From assembly GCF_028641065.1 (NCBI RefSeq), contig NC_073379.1, positions 111,724,001 through 111,788,000 on the forward strand: 64,000 bases of DNA, given 5' to 3'. This document shows positions 4,209 to 55,829 of the stretch, piece by piece; within the stretch, counting starts at the first letter, position 1, and every line of letters starts with the position of its first letter. The stretch is from Leucoraja erinacea (lineage: Eukaryota). The notes beneath the pieces were generated by a model that saw nothing but the letters and a program-made list of their open reading frames with translations, did no database searches and was not told the origin of the DNA. The translations under genes were made by a program, and so were the position numbers.

Positions 4209-4750
4209 GTAGACAAAAGTGCTGGAGAAACTCAGCGGGTGCAGCAGCATCTATGGAACAAAGGAAATTGGCAACGTTTCGGGCTGAAACCCTTCTTCAG
4301 TATTCCTTTGTCTAACTAACTGCTCCCATTCACTGATTGACCAAATTACCTAATTTACACATATCCTCATGGCCATTTTGCAATTTTTTTATGCTTAACC
4401 ACTTTGATATCATAGCAGGTAGGAGTCTGAAGAAGAGTTGTGAGCCAAAACATCGCCTGTCCTTGCTCTCCAGCGATGCTGCCTAACCCGCTGAGTTACT
4501 CAAGCACTTTGTGTCTTTTTTTGATAAATCAGCACCTGCAGTTCTTGGAGGATGCCTGGCAGCAACCAATAACTGAAATAGAAAATTTAGACCATAAAGA
4601 TCATCTGATCATCGGTCTGAAGAAGGGTCTCGACCTGAAACGTCACCCATTCCTTCTCTCCAGCGATGTTGCCTGTCCTGCTGAGTTACTCCAGCATTTT
4701 GTGTAGTAGATTCTGAAACGTCACCCATTCCTTTTCTCTAGAGATGCTGC
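4209..4750. mobile_element. Cluster of four Penelope-like terminal remnants (4209-4300 minus; ~4426-4545, 4614-4705 and 4712-4750 plus)
   Basis: Repeated CTGAAGAAGGG...GAAACGTCACCCATTCC...GATGCTGCC...GCTGAGTTACTCCAGCA module; the 4712 copy is partial. Confidence 0.82.
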
Positions 4751-6922: not shown

Positions 6923-7301
6923 CATCCTCAAGGGCGAAGGTGATCATCCGGAAGTGGTAGTGCATGTCGGCACAAACGATGTCGGAAAGAAGGGGATGAA
7001 TATTCTGCAGCGTGACTTTAGAGAGCTCGGAAAAATGTTGAAAAGCAGGACCTCCAGGGTTGTTATCTCCGGTTTGCTTCCAATTCCCCGTGCTGGCGAG
7101 AGCAGGAACAGGGAGATACGGGACCTGAACGTGTGGCTGAGGAACTGGTGCACGGGGCAGGGATTTAGATTCTTAGATCACTGGGATCTGTTTTGGGGTA
7201 AGGGGGAACTGTACAGAAGGGACGGATTGCATCTTAACAGGTGTGGGACCAGCATTCTGGCAGGCAGGTTTGCCACTGCTACACGGGTGGCTTTAAACTG
7301 A
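6923..7301 (+). pseudogene. CR1 ORF1 C-terminal SGNH/GDSL esterase domain (truncated)
   Basis: PEVVVHVGTND and DGLHLN motifs, typical of the esterase in CR1 ORF1; stop at 7299-7301. Confidence 0.9.
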
Positions 7302-7397
7302 ATAAGGGGGGTGGGGTGTTGAATGGGACAGTGGAGGATGGAGTTAAAGGGAAAGAGTTTCTTAAATGTGTGAGCGTAGAGACCGAAGGGTGTAAAA

Positions 7398-10334
7398 TGA
7401 GGGTAGAAGAAATAGGTAGCAAGGTCAAAAGTAAAAGTGGCAGGCAGACAAAACCAGGGCAAAAATCAAAAAGGGTCACTTTTCAACATAATTGTGTAAG
7501 GGGTAAGAGTGTTGTAAAAACAAGCCTGAAGGCTTTGTGTCTCAATGCAAGGAGCATTCGTAATAAGGTGGATGAGTTGAATGTGCAGATAGCCATTAAT
7601 GATTATGATATAGTTGGGATCACGGAGACATGGCTCCAGGGTGACCTAGGCTGGGAGCTGAACATCCCGGGATATTCAATATTCAGGAGGGATAGAGAGA
7701 AAGGAAAAGGAGGTGGGGTAGTGTTGCTGGTTAGAGAGGAGATTAACGCAATGGAAAGGAAGGACATTAGTTTGGAGGATGTGGAATCGGTATGGGTAGA
7801 GCTGCGAAACAATAAGGGGCAGAAGACGCTGGTGGGTGTTGTGTACAGGCCACCTAACAGTAGTAGTGAAGTTGGGGATGGCATCATACAGGAAATTAGA
7901 AATGCTTGCGACAAAGGCAAAGCAGTTATAATGGGTGACTTCAATCTACATATAGATTGAGTGAATCAAACTGGCAGGGGTGCTGAGGAAGAGGATTTCT
8001 TGGAATGTATGCGGGATAGTTATCTAAACCAACATGTAGAGGAACCAACGAGAGAGCAGGCTATTTTAGACTGGGTATTGAGTAATGAGGAAGGGTTAGT
8101 TAGCAATCTTGTTGTGCGTGGCCCATTGGGCAAGAGTGACCATAATATGGTTGAGTTCTTCATTAGGATGGAGAGTGACATTGTTAATTCAGAAACAATG
8201 GTTTTGAACTTAAAGAAAGGTAACTTTGAGGGTATGAGACGTGAATTGGCCAAGATTGACTGGCCATTAATTCTAAAAGGGTTGACGGTGGATATGCAAT
8301 GGAAGGCATTTAAAGACTGCATGGATGAACTACAAAAATTGTTCATCCCAGTTTGGCAAAAGAATAAATCAGGGAAGGTAGTGCATCCATGGATAACAAG
8401 GGAAATCAGGGATAGTATCAAAGCAAAGGATGATGCGTACAAACTAGCCAGAAAAAGCAGCATACCAGAGGACTGGGAGAAATTCAGAGACCAGCAGAGG
8501 AGGACGAAGGGCTTAATTAGAAAAGGAAAAATGGATTATGAAAGAAAACTGGCAGTGAACATAAAAACTGACTGCAAAAGTTTTTTATAGATATGTGAAA
8601 AGAAAGAGATTAGTTAAAACAAATGTAGGTCCCTTGCAGTCAGAAACAGGTGAGTTGATCATGGGGAACCAGGATATGGCGGACCAATTGAATAACTACT
8701 TTGGTTCCGTCTTCACTAAGGAAGACATAAATGATCTGCCGGAAATAGCAGGGGCCCGCGGGTCAAAGGAGGTGGAGGAATTGAGTGAAATCCAGGTTAG
8801 TCGGGAAGTGGTGTTGGGTAAATTGAATGGATTAAAGGCCGATAAATCCCCAGGGCCAGATAGGCTGCATCCCAGAGTACTTAAGGAAGTAGCTCCAGAA
8901 ATAGTGGATGCATTAGTAATAATCTTTCAAAACTCTTTAGATTCTGGAGTAGTTCCAGAGGATTGGCCGGTAGCAAACGTAACCCCACTTTTTAAGAAGG
9001 GAGGGAGAGAGAAAACGGGGAATAACAGACCAGTTAGCCTAACATCGGTAGTGGGGAAACTGCTAGAGTCAGTTATTAAAGATGGGATAGCAGCACATTT
9101 GGAAAGTGGTGAAATCATTGGACAAAGTCAGCATGGATTTACGAAAGGTAAATCATGTCTGACGAATCTTATAGAATTTTTCGAGGATGCAACTAGTAGC
9201 GTGGATAGGGGAGAACTAGTGGATGTGGTGTATCTGGACTTCCAGAAGGCTTTCGACAAGGTCCCACATAAGAGATTAGTATACAAACTTAAAGCACATG
9301 GCATTGGGGGTTCAGTATTGATGTGGATAGAGAACTGGCTGGCAAACAGGAAGCAAAGAGTAGGAGTAAACGGGTCCTTTTCACAATGGCAGGCAGTGAC
9401 TAGTGGGGTACCGCAAGGCTCAGTACTGGGACCCCAGCTATTTACAATATATATTAATGATCTGGATGAGGGAATTGAAGGCAATATCTCCAAGTTTGCG
9501 GATGACACTAAGCTGGGGGGCAATGTTAGGTGTGAGGAGGATGCTAGGAGACTGCAAGGTGACTTGGATAGGCTGGGTGAGTGGGCAAATGTTTGGCAGA
9601 TGCAGTTTAATGTGGATAAATGTGAGGTTATCCATTTTGGTGGCAAAAACGGGAAAGCAGATTATTATCTAAACGGTGGCCGATTGGGAAAGGGGGAGAT
9701 GCAGCGAGACCTGGGTGTCATGGTACACCAGTCATTGAAGGTAGGCATGCAGGTGCAGCAGGCAGTAAAGAAAGCGAATGGCATGTTGGCTTTCATAGCA
9801 AGAGGATTTGAGTATAGGAGCAGGGAGGTTCTACTGCAGTTGTATAGGGTCTTGGTGAGACCACACCTGGAGTATTGCGTGCAGTTTTGGTCTCCAAATC
9901 TGAGGAAGGACATTATTGCCATAGAGGGAGTGCAGAGAAGGTTCACCAGACTGATTCCTGGGATGTCAGGACTGTCTTATGAAGAAAGACTGGATAGACT
10001 TGGTTTATACTCTCTAGAATTTAGGAGATTGAGAGGGGATCTTATAGAAACTTACAAAATTCTTAAGGGGTTGGACAGGCTAGATGCAGGAAGATTGTTC
10101 CCGATGTTGGGGAAGTCCAGGACAAGGGGTCACAGCTTAAGGATAAAGGGGAAATCCTTTAAAACCGAGATGAGGAGAACTTTTTTCACACAGAGAGTGG
10201 TGAATCTCTGGAACTCTCTGCCACAGAGGGTAGTTGAGGCCAGTTCATTGGCTATATTTAAGAGGGAGTTAGATGTGGCCCTTGTGGCCAAGGGGATCAG
10301 AGGGTATGGAGAGAAGGCAGGTACGGGATACTGA
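7398..10334 (+). pseudogene. CR1 ORF2 (APE endonuclease + reverse transcriptase) with two lesions
   Basis: NARSI, GITETWL, GDFN and SDH endonuclease motifs; GVPQGSVLGP and FADD RT motifs. In-frame TGA at 7958-7960 (Trp expected) and +1 frameshift in the T run at ~8580-8586. The start codon is a guess. Confidence 0.92.
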
Positions 10335-22570: not shown

Positions 22571-22889
22571 TTCCATGGCACAAAATGACGAGCCTGAGTA
22601 AAAGAAGACATGGGAGGAATAAAAATACACCATTATCCAGAGAAGGGAACTGGGTGGGGGGGACAGGAGGGGGTGGCGATCTAGGTAAGAATGTCCTCAG
22701 TGGCTATAACGCGAGCTGCAACAACAGCCATATCACTGGAACGTGCCATGGGTGAAGAAGGGCTCGCTGGTGCACTTTGCCAGTCAGGAGTGCCGTCGAA
22801 AGCCGGGACTCTAAACGGCCGGGGTGACGGTGGGGGCACGGGATGGGTCGGCAGGTCATTCCATTCACATTCTGTTTACATGTTATATT

Positions 22890-23760
22890 TGTGCAGGAAG
22901 GAACTGCAGATGCTGGGTTACACCATAGATAGACACAAAATGCTGGAATAACTCAGCGGGACAGACAGCATCTCTGGAAAGAATGAGAGCAGAGACAGAC
23001 CCTCACCAAATGCAGATTAAGTGACCACTATTTGGCAGTGCAAAAAGGAAGACAGAAGAGATTCTGGCAACCAAGAGAAAACAGAATATGCGGCCACTGT
23101 TTGACAGATGAGGTTGAAACAGAGGTGCACTTCCTCCTAAAATGCAAAAAAAATGACAAAACAAGGAAAGCATACTTTGACAAACTCAGTGTGGCAACCC
23201 CTGATTTTAAAGAACTAGATGATACATCAAAACTAAGAATAATCCTTGGCGAAGGAAATACGGCACATCTTGGTGCACAATACGTAACAGCATGCCACAA
23301 CCTGAGAGACGGTGAATGACCAACATGCACATATGTACGCACACACTAATTGACATTAACTGACACTAAGAAATTAATATTGAATTGCTAAACTTGCTAT
23401 TGTGTTGTACTGCTTACAGCTGCAAGAACGTGTAGCATCAATAAAGGGCTATAGGCCTATTGCGAGTTTATGTACAGGGACATATCTATCCATGCACTGT
23501 ATACTTGTATTTATACTTATGCATCTTAAATATGTATGTCATGTTTTATACTTTGGCAATATAACAATGTATTTTTTATCATGCCAATAAAGTTTATTGA
23601 ATTAAAAATTGAAATTGAACAAATTGAATGAATGGGTGCCGTTTCGGGCCAAGACCCACATCTCAGTCTGAATAAGGGTCTTGACACAAAACATCACCAA
23701 TTCTTTCTATCCAGAGATGCTGTCTGACCCGCTGAGTTACTCAAGCATTTTGTGTCTACA
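22890..23760. mobile_element. Fold-back Penelope terminal element interrupted by an RTEX-like LINE
   Basis: Minus arm 22890-22985 plus 23626-~23660, plus arm ~23665-23760. Confidence 0.75.
22986..23625 (+). mobile_element. RTEX-like LINE 3' fragment with C-terminal CCHC knuckle
   Basis: RQTLTKCRLSDHYLAVQKGR...RENRICGHCLTDEVETEVHFLLKC...AQYVTACHNLR*, followed by GCCAATAAAG and an (AATTGA)-like tail. Possible GAATG TSD. Confidence 0.75.
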
Positions 23761-24524
23761 TTTTATATTTGTTTTATTTAAGTGTCTGGCACTCCATGGT
23801 GCTTCAGAGACACTGTAGGCGAGTCATTAGCAGCCCCAGGGGTCTTGTACTTTCATTATCATGTGATGTCTGTCAGTCCAGAGCAACGGATAATGCAGAA
23901 TGGCTCTGGAACTGAGGGTGTTCAACCAGTAATCAGCTAGGCTGAATGTTTCTTTTCTACTCTGCAGAAAGTTGATGTTTCTTACTTAGGTTATATCTAT
24001 TTAAACATTTGTTTGATGGTAGTCAGAATATTATGAGTAGGTTTGGTTTTCAGTTGAATAAGTCCCCACCTACCCTTTGCATTATCATGCACTCACTCCT
24101 TGACCATCCCTATCGGACGCATGGCTCTCCATGCCAAATTCTACCACCAGAGGGAATCCTTTTCATCATCTCAAACTCACTAATTACATCACTAGTTCTT
24201 CAGCACAAAAGATAATAGAACCACAATCCAGGCAATTTCCTCTCACAACCCAACACCTCAGTCTCAAGTTTCACTGCAGAGAATCCACATTGAACTCACT
24301 GATTGTTCAAATATTTTTTTCCCTTGTTGTATAACTTATTAACCTTTGTAGACGAGCCACTTTAACATGAAAGCCAAAACATCTTTATGAGATTCCGTTT
24401 TTTTTCCAGTCCACTTTTTTTGCAGTAATATCTGTTACTAGATCCCAAAATTCCTCCTCTTATCCATATCTGCTGACATTGCAACATCGTGATAACAGGG
24501 ATCAAACCAATCATGAAAAAACTC

Positions 24525-24690
24525 ACAGGAAGGAACTGCAGATGCTGGTTTAAATCGAAGATAGACACCAAATGTTAGAGTAACTCAGCGGGACAGGCAG
24601 CATCTCTGGAGAGAAAGAATGGGTGACTCATTCAGAATCTGCAGAAGGGTCTCGACCCGAAACGTCACCCATTCCTTCTCTCCAGAGATA
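24525..24690. mobile_element. Fold-back Penelope terminal element
   Basis: TCTCTGGAGAGAAAGAATGGGTGAC ... GTCACCCATTCCTTCTCTCCAGAGA inverted about a CTGCAGAAGGGTCTCGACCCGAAAC core. Confidence 0.8.
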
Positions 24691-25508: not shown

Positions 25509-25940
25509 GACACAAAAAGTTGAAGTAACTCAGCGGGTCAGACAGCATCTCTGGAGAAAAGTGACTAGGTGACGTTTCGGGTCGAGACCCTTCTTCTGAA
25601 ACATCACTTATACCTTTTCTCCAGATTGCTGTCTGACCCGCTGAGTTACTCCAGCTTTTTGTGTCTATTTTCGGTTTATAGACAATAGACAATAGGTGCA
25701 GGAGTAGGCCATTCGGCCCTTAGAGCCAGCACCGTCATTCAATGTGATCGTGGCTGATCATCCCCAATCAGTACCCAGTTCCTGCTTTTTCCCCATATCC
25801 CCTGACTCCGCTATCTTTAAGAGCGCTATCCAGCTCTCTTAGCATCCAGAGAACCTGCCTCCACCGCCCTCTGAGGCAGAGAATTCCACAGACTCACCAC
25901 TCTCTGTGAGGAAAAACCAGCATCTGCAGTTCCTTTCTAT
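25509..25940. mobile_element. Fold-back Penelope terminal element with nested CR1 3' fragment (25678-25912, minus)
   Basis: Inverted arms at 25509-25595 and 25596-25675. CR1 tail (ATAGACA)n is inserted before AAACCAGCATCTGCAG resumes. Confidence 0.8.
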
Positions 25941-27019: not shown

Positions 27020-27978
27020 AGCAAGCTGGCCCATCGGCCCACCAAGTCCATGCTGACTTGCGACCCCCATACACTAGTTCTATCATACACACTAGGGACT
27101 ATTTTTACAGAAGCCAATTAACCTACAAATCTGCACATCTTTGGGATGTGGAAGAAAACCCAAGCACCCAGAGAAAACCCATGCAGTCACAGGGGAAACG
27201 TACAAACTCTGTGCAGACAGTATACAAAGTCAGGATCAAACACGCGTCTCTGGCACGGTAAGGCATCAAAGGGCCTGTCCCACTTACGTGTCCCTGGCAC
27301 GCATATTACGCGACCTCGCGGTTGTGATGAGGCGCACGGGCATCGTACGGCCGCGCGAGGGCCGGTCCCACTGAGAAGCGCGGAGGGGTATGTAGTTGTG
27401 CGCGACATCGCCTGGGGCTCCAAAATTTTTGTAGTGAACGAAATTTTGCGCTCCAACGGCCTGTTGCGGAACTGACGACCAAAATGGGGCAAGACCCTGG
27501 CGCAACGCAACGTCTCACTTCCAACAGCAGCAGAAGCAGGCAAACGATCGCCGAGCTCGGCCTGGGGCTCACGGCCGTTGCCGTTCGGATCCGCCCCCAC
27601 TTCTACTCCCAGAGCAGGGACAAGAACATTTAAGATAGACACAAAATGCTGTAGTAACTCAGCGGGACCGGCAGCATCTCTGGAGAGAAGCAATGGGTAA
27701 CGTTACGGGTCAAGACCCTTCTTTTCAGACTGAAGAAGTCTCGACACAAAACATCATCCATTGCTTCTATCCAGAGATGCTGCCGGTCCCGCTGAGTTAC
27801 TACGGCATTTTGTGTCCATCTTCAAATGACGTCACGCGCTCCAGACGGCTGTGCGGTCGAATGAAGTCGCACGGGACCGTCGCGGCTCAATGCGACCACA
27901 GGGTCGTGTAATTAGCGTGCCAAGGACACGTAAGTGGGACAGGGGCTTAACTCGACACCTGCGCCACTGTGCTGCCCT
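27020..27978 (-). mobile_element. HE1-like SINE split by a MITE
   Basis: SINE body at 27020-27269 resumes at ~27951 (CTCGACACCTGCGCCACTGTGCTGCCC). Confidence 0.8.
27270..27947. mobile_element. PIF/Harbinger-type MITE containing a fold-back Penelope-end module (~27630-27825)
   Basis: TIR AGGGCCTGTCCCACTTACGTGTCCCTGGCACGC / GCGTGCCAAGGACACGTAAGTGGGACAGGGGCT. Flanks CAA/TAA. Confidence 0.85.
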
Positions 27979-32830: not shown

Positions 32831-33635
32831 AAACTACAGGGTTTGTGAACGAAAGACTTTTGGCGACATCTTAATACATTATATACATCTAGTTAATCTC
32901 CTGGAACTGAAAGTATATATTTGAGACCCAAAGATTTTGAATGAAAACAAAAGCGGGAACAGGTACTTTCAATTTACAATTCTGTTGGACTGCTTTTTTA
33001 TGAATGAAAGCAGTGGCTTGTTGTATTCAAGCAGCCATTCAGGCCTTTGTTCAGATGTGATCTATATAAATAGGAGCTGTCCTAGTCTCGTAACATAGAG
33101 TGGTTTCACATTACAGGTGCCATTTTTTTGATATTTTGTACAGTGCATATATTTGTGACAATCATCTGTGCCATTTAATTTGAAGGAGATCGGTACAGTA
33201 GCAGAATTGATCTCAGAGACTACGCTAGTATTATGGCAGTCTTTCAAAAGAATAGTCCCAGTATCAACATCACAATCCATGTATGGGGCGGCACGGTGGT
33301 GCAGCAGTAGAGTTGCTGCCTTACAGCACTTGTGCCAGTGGGCAAAAGGGCTGCATCTCTAAACTAAACTAACTAAACACAATTAGTATCCAGAGGTTCA
33401 ACACCATTTTAATTTAGTTATGTCCTACACTGGATTTTCCTATCGTATCATTCTCTGAAGAAAAAACCCAGAATTAATGCATTAATATAGGAGTAAGTAA
33501 GTCAATGAAAATGATAAAACAGTTCCTAGAAGCTAATTCAGCCCAGAAGTCTGGGCACTAAATCAAAAAAATGTTTAAGTAACCTACTAGAAATATATAT
33601 TTTTGAATCAGGTAACAAGTACGCACCCTTATCAA

Positions 33636-33823
33636 GGTACACAAAAATGCTGGAGAAACTCAGCGGGTGCAGCAGCATCTATGGAGCGAAGGAAATAGGT
33701 GATGTTTGGGGCCGAAACCCTTCTTCAGACCCGAAACCCTTCTTCAGCCCGAAACGTTGCCTATTTCCTTCGCTCCATAGATGCTGCTGCACCCGCTGAG
33801 TTTCTCCAGCATTTTTGTGTACC
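33636..33823. mobile_element. Fold-back Penelope terminal element (near-perfect hairpin)
   Basis: GGTACACAAAAATGCTGGAGAAAC... / ...GTTTCTCCAGCATTTTTGTGTACC with ~75-bp arms; duplicated CCGAAACCCTTCTTCAG at the pivot. Confidence 0.9.
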
Positions 33824-33836
33824 ATATAACAATTAG

Positions 33837-33979
33837 ATTTCAGATTCAGATTCAGATTCAATTTTAATTGTCATTGTCAGTGTACAGTACAGAGACAACG
33901 AAATGCATTTAGCATCTCCCTTGAAGAGCGACATAGCAAACGATTTGAAATTTAAAAAAAAAGATATAATAATAAGTGT

Positions 33980-34010
<31 letters not shown>

Positions 34011-35050
34011 TACTTTTAACCGGAACTCGAAAGAGGGCAGTCACCGAGGTACCAGTGTACTTGAGTAGAGTGACAGCCGCCGTTGAAAGAAGCTGTTCCT
34101 CGACCTGCTGGTTCGGCAACGGAGAGACCTGTAGCGCCTCCCGGATGGTAGGAGGGTAAACAGTCCATGGTTGGGATGAGAGCAGTCCTTGGCGATGCTG
34201 AGCGCCCTCCGCAGACAGCGCTTGCTTTGGACAGACTCAATGGAGGGGAGCGTGGAACCGGTGATGCGTTGGGCAATTTTCACCACCCTCTGCAATGCCT
34301 TCCGGTCGGAGATAGAGCAGTTGCCATACCATACTGTGATGCAGTTGGTAAGGTTGCTCTCGATGGTGCAGCGGTAGAAGTTCACCAGGATCTGAGGAGA
34401 CAGATGGACCTTCTTCAGTCTCCTCAGGAAGAAGAGACGCTGATGAGCCTTCTTGATCAGAGTAGAGATATTGTGGGTCCAAGAGAGGTCATCGGAGATG
34501 TTGACTCCCAGGAGCCTGAAGCTAGAAACACGTTCCACCTCCGTTCCCGTTAATGTGGATGGGGTGTGCGTGCCGCCTCTGGACTTCCTGAATTCTACAA
34601 TGAGCTCCTTGGTCTTCTTGGAGTTAAGGGCCAGGTTGTTGTCAGCGCACCATGCTGCTAAGTGCTGGACCTCCTCCCTGTAGGCCAGCTCATCGTTGTT
34701 GCTGATGAGGCCAATCACCGTTGTATCATCTGCATACTTGATGATGGTGTTAGTACCATGTACAGGTGTGCAGTCATCGGTGAAGAGGGAGTAGAGGAGG
34801 GGGCTCAGCACACAGCCCTGAGGAACATTCCGGTGTTCAGGGTGAGGGTTGAAGAGGTGTGCTTGTCTAACCTCACAGACTGGGGTCTGTTGGTTAGAAA
34901 GTCCAAAGTATCCAGTTGCAGAGGGAGGGGTCGAGATGACAGCTATATCAAACCAGGTGTTACCGAGTTTGGTGATCAGTTTTGATGGAATAATGGTGTT
35001 GAATGCTGAGCTGTAATCGATGAACAGCATTCTTACATAAGTGTCTCTGT
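33837..35050 (-). mobile_element. Rex1/Babar LINE, 5'-truncated RT + 3' UTR, (ATCTGA)n tail
   Basis: ORF 34041-35030: MLFIDYSSAFNTIIP, PQGCVLSPLLYSL, KYADDTT, KKAHQRLFFLRRL, with local frameshifts. Confidence 0.95.
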
Positions 35051-35310
35051 TACAGCACGGAAACAGGCCATCTCGGCCCTACAAGTCCGTGCCGAACAAA
35101 TTTTTTTTCCCTTTAGTCCCACCTGCCTGCACTCATACCATAACCCTCCATTCCCTTCTCATCCATATGCCTATCCAATTTATTTTTTAATGATACCAAT
35201 GAACCTGCCTCCACCACTTCCACTGAAAGCTCATTCCACACCGCTACCACTCTCTGAGTAAAGAAGTTCCCCCTCATATTACCCCATAAACTTCTGTCCC
35301 TTAATTCTGA
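35051..35310 (-). mobile_element. CR1 3' fragment (ATATGGTT family, tail lost)
   Basis: GNFFTQRVVAVWNEL...GRWD*, near-identical to 44070-44300. Confidence 0.9.
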
Positions 35311-35594
35311 AATACCTTCGATCTTCCAGCATCTGCAGTTCCTTCTTGAACACGCACTCTTATCAAGTACCATTTTCTTTTCTGTCAACTGCTAATTATA
35401 CCCATCATCTATCTCCCAGTTACAATGAATAGACATCAATGCTACTTTAAGACTATTATTCCAAATTATCACACAATTGGCAGTAGTCACTTAGCATCCT
35501 AAATTAATCTAAAATCTTTTTCAAAAATACAAAGATATTGAAGGATGTGAGGCAGAAGTGAAATATCATAAATTATTATTTTCAGTTATAAATG

Positions 35595-37045: not shown

Positions 37046-37272
37046 TGCCCCTGTCCCACTTAGGAAACCTGAACGGAAACCTCTGGAGACTTTGCGGCCC
37101 ACCCAAGGTTTCCGTGCAGTTCCCGGAGGTTTTTGTCAGTCTCTCTACCTGCTTCCACTACCTGCAACCTCCAGAAACCACCTGCAACCTCCGGGAACCG
37201 CACAGAAACCTTGGGTGGGGCGCAAAGTCTCCAGAGGTTTCCGTTCAGGTTTCCTAAGTGGGACAGGTAGCA
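37046..37272. mobile_element. Palindromic PIF/Harbinger-type MITE
   Basis: ~85-bp inverted arms starting TGCCCCTGTCCCACTTAGGAAACCTGAACGGAAACCTCTGGAGACTTTGCG. TTA TSD at 37043-37045 and 37273-37275. Confidence 0.92.
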
Positions 37273-38456: not shown

Positions 38457-40457
38457 CAAGAAGCTAAAAAGAGTCTTTTGGTTGCACTTACACCAAAGGA
38501 CCATGCCCACATGGTTGGTAAACATAATTTAGCAGCTGCATAGGCTTATTAAAGTGATGCACATTTTAATGTAGCAGACATCCCACATGACCGACAACCC
38601 ATACAGGAACTAATGTCCGTTTTAATGGCAAGATGTTAACAAGGTGGCTGTGGTCTGTTTTACATCTTCCCTCTCTTTCTACAACACCTCCCTTCTCCAA
38701 GCTCAAGGGAATTTAAAATTCAGTTTTCCTAATTATAAACTATTTTTCTCTGATCATCGGGTTTCATATCCAATTGTGCACCATTTTGCTTTGCTGCTAC
38801 TGCGTTAATTTGCTTGGAAAGTGTTGAGGAATTCAGTTTACAAGCTTAGGGTACTCCAATATTTAACATTCAGCTTCAAAAGGATTATTGCTTTCGAGGA
38901 TTTGACACGACTAAATGGAAGATGTGAAATGGGTTTTCAAGTATAACTAATTTGCTGTAGAGTCATAAATTAGAATGTCTGAAGCATTTAACACTGCTGG
39001 TGTAGTTGTCATCACTGCTGATGTATACAATGAATTCACAGATTAATTGGAGGGACAGTAAAATAGTTAAATTTAGTAAACTGAATACCTCATACTCATG
39101 ACGTAAGTAGTGAAGTTTTTCCTTGCATGCAAGGTGAACAGATCCCCACTATATATTTTATGTATGCATGTGGAGATAATTTTATTTAAATGACCATTAA
39201 CATTGTATAAATTGTTAACTTGAGCAGGGATTATTACAAGTGCAGGCAGGTGTTCTAATATTCTTATTTATTTAGTTATATGAGCTACCTTTCATCTCTG
39301 TCCAAAGGTGACCAGCTGGCAAATTTTTAGAAAACTTAATTTTATGGGAGCAAATTTTAAATACCTCTCGACTCACTTGGAGCCAAATCCAAGTCAACTG
39401 TAATGTTTGGAAAATATTTGGGCTTGTGCCCTTACAAATGTTAAACAAACTTGATTTATTAATTATGAATAGGCATCATGGTGCACTTGTTTGTAAACGG
39501 CATGATGTTATGAAGAATGTTAATGTTCAAAGTACAGATTAGATAACCATTGTATTTATAATGTGCCTTAACATCTTCAAACCCTGTTTAAGTATTTTTG
39601 GCATCTTAGAAAGTGCAGAACAAATTCCATTGCAACCACTAATACCAGTTTTGTTATCCTCTTCCCCAATACGATCAAACAATTAGCCTTGTCCCTTTCA
39701 AAAACGTTCCTGAGTTCAAAAAACGTTCCTGAATTCAACCTAGATCTTCGGTGTGGTCTTGAGGCATTTCATTTCCTAATAAACATTAAAAGCCAATGTC
39801 TCTCCGTCCATTAATTAATTAATTTTAGGGTACACTGACTGTGATTATATGGGGTCATCACAGAGCCAGGGGTGCCGTTATTTGAATGTTGGGGTGCAGT
39901 CACTAAAATTTAGAAGCACAAAATAAGAGTAGAAATTCCATTTGTAGGCACGTGCCTATTGCTCCAAAACCCCATGGAACATTCATATGTGAAACACTGT
40001 AAATATTAATCAGAGTAGAAAATTACTACAGTTTACTTAGGTGGATATATAAATGTTAGAAATTATGATACAGTCATGATTATTTTTCAACCTTCACGAA
40101 AAATTCTACTTCGCACATTACAAAAATCTGTTTTAGTACATTGAGTGAAATCCCTGTTTAATATTTTGTAGTACATTTGTTTCTCTTTCATGTAAAATTG
40201 CCTCTGCAGTCTCTGCTTGAAGCAAAATATTGTTTCTATACCTGGTGTGTGGTCTGATTTATTTCTTTTTTGTCTGGGTCACACAAACTTTCTATTTTAG
40301 TTTAAATGATCATATTTGCTTTAAAGAAACTAAAGGAAAGCCAAAACCAAATGAGCAGTTTGGTGATGTCATCATGACAAGTGTTCGCAACAGTGATCCA
40401 GAAAGTAGCTGCACCATTGCTGCCATGGATAAGATTAGCTAAATCAGTAGGCTGGGA

Positions 40458-40672
40458 TAAACACAAAAAGCTGGAGTAACTCAGCGGGGCAGGCAACATT
40501 TCTGGAGAGAAGGAATGGGCGACGTTTCGGGCCAAAACCCTTCTGAGTGTGAAGAAGGGTCTCGACCCGAAACGTCACCCATTCCTTCTCTCCAGAGACG
40601 CTGCCTGTCCCGCTGAGTTACTTTTTTGTGTCTATTTTTGCTTTAAACCAGCATTGCAGTTCCTTCTTACAC
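40458..40672. mobile_element. Fold-back Penelope terminal element
   Basis: Inverted arms meet at CCCTTCTGAGTGTGAAGAAGGGTCTCGACCCGAAACGTC. Confidence 0.88.
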
Positions 40673-40939
40673 AGTAGACTAGGAACCAGACTTAGTCTCC
40701 AGGACTAATAAGGAGACAGATCTAGCATGATTTGTACTCCCACATCTGATTGTTACTCAAGAATATGCTGAGGCAACATTGTGATAAAAACAAGAGAGGA
40801 ACATGTGAACACATATGTATGGCCCTTGAGTGAACGTAGAATTACTTCTGACACCAAAGCATTCTTTGCCTTAATACCTGTATTGTTTCTTTACTCAGAA
40901 ACACAATGAAAGAGACTTGTGGGAGGGTTAGATGAGGTA

Positions 40940-52312: not shown

Positions 52313-52479
52313 AATATCAAAGATAGCTCCATCCAATATTTGATAGGACACCTTACTTGAGTGCACAGTGTCCTTCGCAGCCTCAGTATGTCATAAGTAG
52401 AGTAATGGAATTAATAATCCAGTAACCACCCGTTGAAGGAGTTTACTGAAAAAGAATAGACCAGGATATCATAATCCCA

Positions 52480-53215
52480 CGTGACCCCACCACTCGCCAC
52501 ATCTTCCCATCTCCCCCCATATCTGCCTTCCGCAAAGACCGCTCCCTCCATAACTCCCTTGTCAATTCTTCCCTTCCCTCTCGTACCACCCCCTCCCCGG
52601 GCACTTTCCCTTGCAACCGCAAGAGATGCAACACTTGTCCCTTTACCTCCCCCCTCGACTCCGTTCAAGGACCCAAGCAATCGTTCCAGGTGCGACAGAG
52701 GTTTACCTGCATCTCCTCCAACCTCATCTATTGCATCCGCTGCTCTAGATGTCAGCAGATCTATATCGGTGAGACCAAGCGGAGGTTGGGCGATCGTTTC
52801 GCCGAACACCTCTGCTCGGTCCGCAATAACCAAGCTGACCTCCCGGTGGCTCAGCACTTCAACTCCCCCTCCCACTCCATCTCCGACCTCTCTGTCCAGG
52901 ATCACCTCCATGGCCACAGCGAGCAGCACCGGAAATTGGAGGAACAGCACCTCATATTCCGTTTCGGGAGTCTGCATCCTGGGGGCATGAACATCGAATT
53001 CTCCCAATTTTGTTAGTCCTTGCTGTCTCCTCCCCTTCCTCAGCTCCCCTGCTGTCTCCTCCCATCCCCCAGCCTTCGGGCTCCTCCTCCCTTTTTCTTT
53101 TCTTGTCCCCGCCCCCGTTCAGTCTGAAGAAGGGTTTCAGCCCGAAACGTTGCCTATTTCCTTCGCTCCATAGATGCTGCTGCACCCGCTGAGTTTCTCC
53201 AGTTTTTTTGTGTAT
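52480..53215 (+). mobile_element. Penelope-like element 3' part: Cys-rich linker, GIY-YIG endonuclease and terminal repeat
   Basis: Open frame 52480-53016: ...FPCNRKRCNTCP...FTCISSNLIYCIRCSRCQQIYIGETKRRLGDRFAEH...VAQHFN...EEQHLIF...GMNIEF. It is followed by CTGAAGAAGGGTTTCAGCCCGAAACGTT at 53123. Confidence 0.93.
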
Positions 53216-53460: not shown

Positions 53461-54810
53461 CATTTGGTGCTGATGATGTGGCCTCTTCCACATTGGCACG
53501 GTCAAGCATGGACTAACTAAATTATTATTTTACAGAGCAACTGTGCAGTTCGCAACCGCCAACTTGAGATTCTAGTTGCACATCATTCCAGATCACCTTC
53601 CCTTCCCCACACCAACCTCTGGCTTTGGTATCCTCCATAGCACGGCGAGGTTAAATGAAAATTAGAAGAGCAGTAGCTCGTATCCAGTGTCATGTCATTA
53701 TATTTTCCAATTTCAAGTCACATGCTCCCCCATGTCTTTCTTGTCCATCCCCTCCGGTCCACCCAGGGTTTCTCTCCCTTCGTTCATCTTTTCTACCCTC
53801 CGCTTACCTCCCACACCCCCAACTTGCCATTAATTAGACTCCCTTTCTCCGACCTGATTCCATCCTTGTGCTCGTCTACCTTGGTTTATTGCTCCAACGG
53901 TTCACCCTTTCCTATTGTCTCCACAATCTAGTTCCATCTGCCCATCATCCCCCTCTCCATCTGCGTCTACCCACCAGCTTCTGTCTCAACCCCTCCCTCT
54001 CACTTCTATAATAACCATCTTCCCTCTACTCTCTTAGTCCAGATGCAGGGTCTCAATCTGAAAAATCCCTTTCTCTCCGCAGATGCTGCCGAGTTCTTAT
54101 CGTGGTTATTTGTGTTGGGTTTTAACCAGAAGCAAGCAGTACAATACGCATTTCAAAGATTAATCATTTCTCATAAGAAGTGTATTGCTCTGATCACAAT
54201 AAATTAGATTGAACATAATTGTTAAGGTGATCAGGTACAAACATGAATTTCTAGTAAAAAATCCAGGTAATAATCAATTGGGATTGCATTAATTGCTTTT
54301 GTCCTGGGTTGAAAAAGACTAATAGTTACCAATTAAACAATGTTCATGTGACTGAATTACTAATTACACATGATTTCTGAAATCACTTACATATTTTAAA
54401 TAAACTTTCAGAATTGCATGAAGAAAATTGCAAATGTTTTGTTTAATTTACTTTTATTTTCTATCCAATTAGTTATACTTAAGTTATTAAAATTTGGTAT
54501 CATAAGCTAGAAAATGTTTTTAAAGTAATTTAAATTTGCTGGATAGTTGCATTTAGTGCACCACTGATCCTGTGGTATGTACTCCATTCAAGCAGAGATA
54601 TGTTAGCAATATTAGTTAGTAAATCAGATTTTACAGAAAGCTTAAAATAATTTATGGATATTCAGCATGTATCAAGCCAACACAACATGCAACTTAGTTT
54701 AATGTGTCATGTTGTTCCTATTTCCTCATGACATAGAAGACTATTCAACCTATTGAATTAATACCAGCTCTCAAATAAATGCCGCCTCCCTCCCCCCCCC
54801 CCTCCCCCTA

Positions 54811-55348
54811 AGGGCCTGTCCCACGAGCATGCGACTGCATGTGGCTAGCGCGACCTAACGTGGTCGCTTGAGCCGTACGGCCTCATGGCCGGTCCCACTT
54901 CGATCGCCGGAGCCGTATGGAGTTGTGCGGGGCTGGTCTCGACATCGCGCGGGGCTCTGAAAAACTGACACTGTTCAAAAATTCCACACGACAACGGCCT
55001 GTCAGCCTGCAGCCGCATTGATATCGTACGCAGCACCTCGACGTCGTACGCAGTGTCTTGACGCCGTACGCAGTGTCTTGACGGCGTACGCCTAGCGCGT
55101 GGCATTGCGCGATGTCGTCACCGCCCGACGTGCCGTTGCATGATGAGATAACCGCCCGACGCCGTGCAACGTCCAAATTCAGTCAGCCCGCCTCGCTGAT
55201 TGGTGAGTATGATGTCGGGACCAGCCCCGCACAACTACAGACGGCTCCACGGTTGGAAGTGGGACCGGCTCCGTGAGGCCGTACGCCTCGCACCACCACA
55301 TTTGGTCGCGCTAGACGCATGCAGTCACATGCTGGTGGGACAGGCCCT
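54811..55348. mobile_element. PIF/Harbinger-type MITE
   Basis: TIR AGGGCCTGTCCCACGAGCATGCGACTGCATG / CATGCAGTCACATGCTGGTGGGACAGGCCCT, with inverted similarity extending ~120 bp. Flanks CTA/TTA. Internal 20-bp tandem repeat at ~55040-55090. Confidence 0.9.
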
Positions 55349-55829
55349 TTACTGAACACAGGATGAGCATGCAACCTCTACAGACACAGTACTACAGCAC
55401 AGGATTGAATGTGGGAGCTGTGAAGCTGCCGTCTAAAAACATTCACATGAGCAATAAATGCAAACTGCCTTTTTTAAAAGCTACATCCCTATTAAAGTAG
55501 TATTTCCTTTTGCTCAGCACATGTTATTCTTCCCTTTACTGCAAGATAGTCAAAGACTTGGTTCTGGCCAAATGTAGGTAGTTGTTACTCAAGAGCACTA
55601 AAGAATGAGTGGGTTCTCTGAGTTAATTCAACAGTCCTCGTGCCATTTTCTAATACCAGACCACAAATCAACATCTAAAACAAATTTCATTGACAATTCC
55701 AATATTAAAGTTCACGACACAAAATCAAAAGAATGGTTCTGGACCATGTGCAAAATCGTGTTATTCAGATTATGAATTATGCATGTTATTCAGATTATGT
55801 TCCAGATGCTGGAAATCCAAAATAAAGAA

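Follow-up and report, generated by a model that had tools for sequence, protein, structure and literature searches.

A 64,000-nucleotide stretch of the genome of the skate Leucoraja erinacea (the window; positions below refer to it) contains at 33636 to 33823 a short hairpin, in which two copies of what looks like the end of a Penelope element face each other. The sequence-only reading had counted six such pairs, all said to turn at a hammerhead ribozyme core, and had traced them either to template switching at the ribozyme fold or to a hairpin-shaped family mobilised in trans. The locus therefore raises the question of how the end of a retrotransposon comes to stand head to head with itself, and of whether the ribozyme has any part in the process.

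Six inverted pairs of one terminal module

Mapping of a 135-nt reference module onto the window gave 34 matches and confirmed inverted pairs of one module at all six sites. In the numbering used here, +1 is the C of CAGTCTGAAG and cleavage is predicted before +33. The module is about 135 nt long, and not about 90 bp as first described; its arms stop either at about +95 to +100 or at about +135. The focal hairpin truly extends from 33634 to 35353, a later insertion having divided one of its arms, and is made up as follows.

33621 to 33636, plus strand: left copy of the target site duplication (TSD), 16 bp, 15/16 match
33634 to 33730, minus strand: short arm, module +3 to about +100, core damaged (GAAA changed to CAAA)
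33731 to 33747, minus strand: junction, a 17-nt re-copy of module +5 to +21 between the arms
33748 to 33823, plus strand: long arm, part 1, about +21 to +97, without the CUGA core
33824 to 35313, minus strand: later LINE-type insertion(s) dividing the long arm, 1.49 kb
35314 to 35353, plus strand: tail (+96 to +135), forming part 2 of the long arm
35352 to 35367, plus strand: right copy of the TSD, 16 bp

The arms (81 nt, 94% complementary) fold at -155.6 kcal/mol (z -24; 0/200 shuffles). The minus arm reads CAAACATC in place of GAAACGTT, the plus arm begins at about +21, which is 3' of the CUGA core, and stem II has a pairing probability of 0.0 in the hairpin. The inserted LINE-type sequence contains a reverse transcriptase (RT) fragment (34041 to 35078; Pfam RVT_1, E 4.8e-16). 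Long double-stranded stems, which had been expected if these loci were transcribed, are indeed predicted by folding, but the RNA sampled gave no sign that the focal locus is transcribed: two raw RNA runs, and likewise two contig sets, had zero depth on its unique left flank (33400 to 33627), a thin sampling. Rfam microRNA matches in the window scored below the gathering threshold and were rejected, as they reflect hairpin shape only.

The other five hairpins, of which the last is numbered 6 with the focal pair counted in order, have the following features.

22890 to 23757: hairpin 1; long arm on the minus strand, +135 to +13; short arm on the plus strand, +1 to +94
22987 to 23625: unrelated insert dividing the long arm of hairpin 1
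22878 to 22892 and 23758 to 23772: TSD of hairpin 1, 15 bp, 14/15 match
24529 to 24689: hairpin 2; long arm on the minus strand, +128 to +30; cut-short arm on the plus strand, +4 to +55; no clear TSD in the flanks
25509 to 25935: hairpin 3; short arm on the minus strand, +93 to +4; long arm on the plus strand, +23 to +127; no clear TSD in the flanks
25679 to 25913: insert dividing the long arm of hairpin 3
27630 to 27825: hairpin 4; both arms stop near +100 (atypical) and have three private variants in common; TSD absent
27269 to 27335 and 27882 to 27948: other inverted arms flanking hairpin 4
40461 to 40673: hairpin 6; short arm on the minus strand, +92 to +9; long arm on the plus strand, +2 to +135
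40445 to 40457 and 40672 to 40684: TSD of hairpin 6, worn, 13 bp, 11/13 match

Four of the six hairpins thus combine a long and a short arm, one a long and a cut-short arm and one two short arms, and a TSD is present in three. The sites given in the sequence-only reading hold, but the size of about 170 to 210 bp does not hold for three of them, which are larger owing to later inserts (22890 to 23757, 25509 to 25935 and 33634 to 35353). The CTGAAGA-type motif that was quoted for every junction has an exact match in none of the six. No hairpin in the window retains an intact hammerhead core, each being mutated or cut off at CUGA or GAAA, and the window gave no Rfam hammerhead match, as is expected for the minimal form. 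A further pair of copies at 4210 to 4544 was treated as chance neighbours and not as a hairpin, the arms being separated by a 123-nt gap and belonging to different subfamilies.

The parent element

The window also carries a 5'-truncated copy of the parent element (52450 to 53214, plus strand), in which the end of a GIY-YIG open reading frame (ORF; 52450 to 53016; E 2e-4) is followed by a pyrimidine-rich spacer and by module +1 to +95 with its core intact (53120 to 53214). A genome search with this copy yielded 114,175 candidates; among the 150 scored, identity reached 96% (self excluded), and frames reached 852 aa. The 852-aa frame, at locus L086, matched RVT_1 (E 8.8e-6) and GIY-YIG (E 0.0065) in Pfam, both under the curated cut-offs. 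The parent protein is encoded by a single ORF and consists of an RT, a C-x4-C-xx-C linker and, at the C terminus, a GIY-YIG domain. A CX2-5CxxC linker between RT and endonuclease is described in the available part of PMC8557442 as a feature of Neptune that is common to Nematis, and on the basis of its linker and domain layout the parent sequence fits a Neptune-type Penelope-like retrotransposon (PLE). At locus L090, a 4143-bp unit in partial tandem places the module both 3' of the stop codon and 5' of the 5' region, and L094 shows the same continuation. In addition, 65 exact copies read through the tail into the 5' region. This layout is that of a pseudo-LTR (pLTR) produced by a partial tandem that overlaps the element's 5' end. 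The assignment of the module to the end of a Penelope pLTR with a minimal hammerhead, as first proposed, is upheld. In the subfamily-B parent repeat the core (CUGAnGA, stem II, GAAA and a palindromic stem III) is intact, with 14,359 exact genomic matches.

Two further features of the parent were observed. Its 5' region (L090:3700-4100) contains GC-rich tandem repeats of about 33 to 36 bp, the number of which varies among copies, and the stretch between stop codon and module (window 53013 to 53122, and the copies at L046 and L054) resembles a retained intron, with a donor-like GT, a pyrimidine tract and a CAG ending at +3.

Abundance and pairing in the genome

In 60 evenly spaced 10-kb stretches (600 kb) we counted 235 module copies and 44 close head-to-head pairs. 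Scaled to the genome of 2.19 Gb, this gives roughly 860,000 copies and about 160,000 pairs, an extrapolation from 600 kb drawn from large contigs only; the density figures do not include another five 10-kb stretches chosen at random (L141-L145). Given the sampled density, the six hairpins per 64 kb are the genome average. When the window was included (269 copies, 664 kb), 76 close neighbours lay within 150 nt, of which 55 were head-to-head, 15 direct and 6 tail-to-tail; head-to-head pairing exceeds chance.

The junctions of the six hairpins all differ, as had been noted, but this does not extend to the genome, where one junction, CCCTTCTTCAG[A/T]CTGAAGAAGGG, recurs at 1065 sites (control, 0). 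Worn copies of it are present in three of the six hairpins (23650 to 23680, 27715 to 27745 and 40535 to 40560). In addition, three hairpins on two contigs (L168:1364-1645, L330:180-435 and L340:178-431) have an identical 15-bp target duplication inside copies of one other repeat but differ in their junctions or in where the arms end, which suggests independent insertions at a preferred site or carriage within the host repeat.

One tail, two arms and an evenly split centre base

Arm structure was determined in a young set, the first 70 of 326 exact matches to the commonest junction in subfamily B. Exactly one arm was tailed in 66 of these hairpins, and two tails were seen in 0/70: 49 paired a long with a short arm, 17 a long with a cut-short arm and none a long with a long arm, with one short and short pair and three others. 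Arms end at +95 to +100 or at +132 to +138, and the outer ends are unequal in 66/70. The tailed arm ends near +135 and its partner at or before about +98 to +105; in 17 of the 66 hairpins the partner arm stops at some point between +35 and +87, in most cases adjoining the TSD. A TSD flanks 62 of the 66 hairpins with a long arm (median, 15 bp; variable, 9 to 21 bp), and in an overlapping set of 50, with 14 loci common to the 70, a TSD of at least 10 bp was found in 34, vs 9 of 239 mismatched controls. In an unselected sample, 30 of 36 pairs were long and short (18 expected; p 4e-5). Furthermore, at 28 mapped loci, all 11 ORF-bearing inverted insertions that showed both outer ends had one tailed and one shorter arm. 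The hairpins are the shortest members of a continuum with these kilobase ORF-bearing inversions.

Arms of one hairpin agree at variable sites far more often (0.84) than shuffled pairs do (0.58; maximum 0.70 in 2000 shuffles), and within subfamily B the values are 0.86 and 0.58 (p 0.0002); both arms therefore come from one source, in line with the sequence-only reading. Mismatches amount to 122/5122 (2.4%) between arms and 11/951 (1.2%, biased low by trimming) between TSD copies, and since the arms are not more alike than the TSD copies, there is no sign of later exchange between them. At the centre of the junction CAG[A/T]CTG, the natural T was on the long arm in 33 hairpins and on the short arm in 33. 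This base discriminates between models, because a master hairpin, or fold-back of the tailed strand, would fix it, while two annealed cDNAs would leave it to chance. The one-tail rule, the TSDs and the 33:33 centre base thus argue against both a master hairpin family and simple fold-back. Each hairpin is a single insertion of a Penelope-like terminal repeat, and we consider it probable that it arose at landing from two short cDNAs, one primed on each strand of the target, which annealed at the point where the RNA template starts.

In the alternative, fold-back or self-priming, a single cDNA (or an antisense template) turns back on itself at a short palindrome, and the RT copies back until the target is joined; this is the template-switch idea of the earlier reading and closely resembles the self-priming model of Arkhipova et al. 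(2013). Private variants common to both arms would be accounted for, as would the lack of long and long pairs and the 17/66 partner arms that stop variably, like a truncated second copy; palindromes at inverted junctions are read as self-priming in the available part of PMC3846280. Fold-back predicts, however, that the tailed arm is in every case the one that sets the centre base and is more complete at its 5' end, but the centre base is split 33:33, and at several loci (L224, L230, L239, L243, L087, L102 and L105) it is the short arm that extends further 5', an arrangement that copying back from the long arm could not produce. To rescue it, frequent later flips of the centre would be required, and the arms show no homogenisation. 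A 1-nt loop, moreover, cannot close by itself. On balance, fold-back is an unlikely source of the hairpins.

A self-propagating, hairpin-shaped non-autonomous family mobilised in trans would explain why one junction recurs 1065 times in dispersed copies with TSDs. A near-palindrome at the shared edge would nevertheless yield a recurrent junction each time, many other junctions exist, and a master copy would have fixed the centre base relative to the tail. The arms match each other and not fixed left and right types, 58 short and 21 long copies have variants in common, and the continuum reaches kilobase inversions of the same layout with ORFs. We regard such a family as very improbable.

The inner edge and the ribozyme cleavage site

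The turn had been placed at the ribozyme core. It does lie within the core or at its 5' edge, but this is some 30 nt upstream of where the GUH motif would be cleaved. The breakpoint clustering that had been proposed as a check was found in 79 young subfamily-B copies anchored at +54 to +88, some of which are the two arms of one insertion and two of whose loci look duplicated: 5' ends lay upstream of -30 in 21 copies, at -7 to +7 in 41, at +8 to +25 in 14, at +36 to +46 in 3 and at +33 in none. The rate of 5' ends per nucleotide was 0.044 at -7 to +7, vs 0.0014 at +26 to +53 and 0.0008 at -64 to -8, so that 5' ends are 30 to 50 times as frequent at the edge as in the flanks. Solo copies have the same edge as hairpins, and the edge is therefore not hairpin-specific. 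Because an RT, which travels 3' to 5', would already have unwound the fold by the time it reached this edge on the 5' side of the core, and because 0/79 copies start at +33, a template switch at the ribozyme fold or cut is disfavoured as the main route.

Hammerhead cleavage could instead make the RNA end at which the arms turn. A minor junction class at +27 to +34 points in this direction: with equal-length junction probes, the genome gave 923 matches at the edge, 407 at stem III and the cut, and 48 in a mid-module control, and 8 among the first 50 stem III matches listed, counted by eye, fit both arms starting at +33. These first 50 span about 800 Mb, which implies only about 135 dispersed sites with the rest clustered, and many of the junctions turn at the self-complementary AACGTT. 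The lack of starts at +33 refutes cleavage for the majority, nearly all copies span the cut site, and a PLE protein from Anolis, PAc, uses uncleaved RNA according to the available part of PMC11167929. Cleavage may feed a small junction class, not the bulk; as the origin of the hairpins it is barely credible. The hammerhead is likely a passenger here, and the stubs are likely dead. As a separate observation, about 270 of the 407 stem III matches must fall beyond the first 800 Mb, above their share, which suggests that one stem III hairpin was amplified on later contigs.

Nature of the shared edge

From mixed evidence, we infer that the shared edge is an RNA 5' end. The edge is sharp upstream and trails downstream, as a run-off end would, and its sequence, TCAGTC, is an initiator-like motif. 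In solo copies that start at +1 to +3 with extra letters after the TSD, those letters end in G in 5/5, a post hoc observation that fits a copied cap. Drosophila virilis Penelope has an internal promoter, according to the available part of PMC2377424. In a genome-wide cap test, G was found 918 times vs 1076 for C/T, twice the base-composition ratio, but the excess was mostly GG, which is also expected from slippage or microhomology; a preceding G was present, by eye, in about 54 of 100 listed G rows vs 10 of 100 listed C/T rows, and without these the ratio was near background. The read-through copies are less favourable to an RNA 5' end: among 30 of the 65, only 2 start at 0, 4 at +9 to +26, 14 at +62 to +122 and 10 upstream, and the two near-full-length copies that lack a tandem part upstream begin at +58 and +85.

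RNA reads on the parent repeat (1 to 5% of each run) gave no start peak at +2/+3. Between 70 and 94% of them continue into unrelated sequence, and they therefore report host transcripts that hold copies and not element starts. Such host-transcript reads repeat the edges of copies (+2 in 735 reads, +3 in 480), strand-switching junctions included, and hairpin junctions are present in poly(A) reads. The sole start peak listed is weak: in single-cell run X22, 15 molecules at L090:5183 have their first base near -113, where an initiator-like TTAGTC lies beside the stop codon.

Two cDNAs might also join at an edge that is not a transcription start but a point of RT stopping or processing in a longer RNA, such as the start of a C-rich tract, a bound protein or a splice-acceptor-like site ending at +3. 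A pyrimidine tract and then CAG stand at the edge, a donor-like GT lies at the stop codon in three subfamilies, 21/79 copies read through the edge and read-through copies show no pile-up at +2; in D. virilis, the available parts of PMC4209133 and PMC2377424 have an intron that ends at helix I, with the start 46 nt upstream of that intron. The spliced junction, however, in the one form tested, had 0 matches in the genome and none in 1.41 Mb of loci, and the TSD of solo copies lies 0 to 11 nt from the edge without a carried exon. The run-off shape of the boundary also speaks against this version, to which we give little credence.

Proposed mechanism

The joining of two cDNAs at the RNA 5' end can be envisioned as follows. 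The endonuclease would make a staggered cut about 15 nt wide, and of the two 3'-OH ends one would prime at the +135 start and its partner at the +98 start or upstream of it, probably with a single RNA as template. If priming took place at the repeat copy on the RNA's 5' end, both cDNAs would run off after 95 to 135 nt, and their near-palindromic 3' ends (AG-A-CT or TC-A-GA) could anneal round an A-A mismatch, of which repair or replication would fix either base. Priming in the 3' repeat would give the same layout with kilobase arms, and the loss of one cDNA would leave a solo stub of 95 or 135 nt. In vitro, the Anolis PLE protein, a predicted dimer that uses uncleaved RNA, cuts and extends both strands, and two RT starts define the tail (PMC11167929); the available part of that study finds no strand difference in start site and does not report on the pairing of starts.

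A stricter version is tentative, and we hold it to be possible rather than likely: twin priming would be obligatory and asymmetric, with one dimer and one RNA serving two target strands at the two tail-defining starts, and the stubs would be strong-stop cDNAs off the capped 5' end, transferable to the 3' repeat and so rebuilding the pLTR. Against so tidy a two-start scheme stand the 17/66 partner arms that stop variably, by which the second arm is not tied to one start. If the scheme is true, the genome holds about 160,000 records of asymmetric twin priming, enough to settle the origin of PLE inverted repeats and tails.

Relation to known systems

The hairpins had been put forward as an undescribed system, but their layout (a head-to-head inverted copy, a tail on one arm and a TSD) is already in print (PMC3846280 and PMC8557442, available parts). 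Insertions of endonuclease-containing (EN+) PLEs with an inverted, 5'-truncated pLTR and a one-sided tail are described in the available text for Adineta Pen2, Pen2a and Pen3a (PMC3846280), for others (PMC8557442) and for D. virilis Penelope (PMC2377424). The skate hairpins share with them the head-to-head inverted pLTR, the junction palindrome, a tail of 30 to 40 nt on one arm, the TSD and the partial tandems. In contrast to Adineta, as far as it is described there, mostly the last 95 to 135 nt are inserted here, TSDs are near 15 bp (8 to 10 bp in Adineta), the pairs number about 160,000 and the inner edge is sharp. These statistics favour two cDNAs over the self-priming model presented in the available part of PMC3846280.

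The ribozyme, for which self-cleavage is a prediction, resembles minimal type I hammerheads in its CUGAnGA, the extra base before stem II, GAAA and the palindromic ACGU for helix III, but helix I has only 2 bp next to the core and the six cores are broken. In Schistosoma, dual hammerhead motifs have been noted 100 to 700 bp apart on opposite strands, while the motifs here stand back to back within 0 to 30 bp. L1 twin priming likewise starts from both target strands, its inverted pieces meet in the middle and one TSD encloses the entire insertion. In L1, however, the inverted piece is copied from a more upstream part of the RNA and has no overlap with the first, whereas here both arms copy the same terminal sequence and form a palindrome.

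Likewise, PAc (Anolis Poseidon; Frangieh et al. 2024, PMC11167929) works from two internal RT starts that lie side by side and define the tail, acts on both strands by cutting and extension, and uses uncleaved RNA. It belongs to a different clade, and the available part of the paper reports neither the pairing of starts per insertion nor run-off at the RNA 5' end. Non-LTR retrozymes are similarly ORF-less, PLE-derived and furnished with a type I hammerhead, but, in the available part of their description (bioRxiv 10.64898/2026.07.22.740005), they form head-to-tail tandems (at least two units) with an intact ribozyme per unit. With inverted arms and broken cores, the skate hairpins were rejected as non-LTR retrozymes; as MITEs they were rejected on their unequal outer ends (66/70) and TSDs of variable length (9 to 21 bp).

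The hairpins are an abundant by-product of a known class of retrotransposon and not a new ribozyme system. Their value is that of an extensive natural archive of the reaction by which PLE inverted repeats and tails arise; a literature search in main texts largely outside the subscription journals, and apart from Repbase and Dfam, found no published counts of arm pairing or of the centre base. It is the combination of never two tails, a 33:33 centre, a TSD near 15 bp and a sharp edge that separates the joining of two cDNAs from the published self-priming. In addition, the hairpins, about 160,000 in number and up to 95 bp long, could feed double-stranded RNA into host transcripts.

Other elements in the window

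The window contains a long LINE copy at 7238 to 10334, with endonuclease and RT frames of 240, 209 and 589 aa, which we take to be of the CR1/L2 type. Four MITE-like fold-backs with long inverted arms are unrelated to the Penelope module (1429 to 2751, 27269 to 27948, 37050 to 37267 and 54810 to 55349). The arms of the one at 37050 to 37267 are 82 nt long and 96% alike, and hairpin 4 sits within the one at 27269 to 27948.
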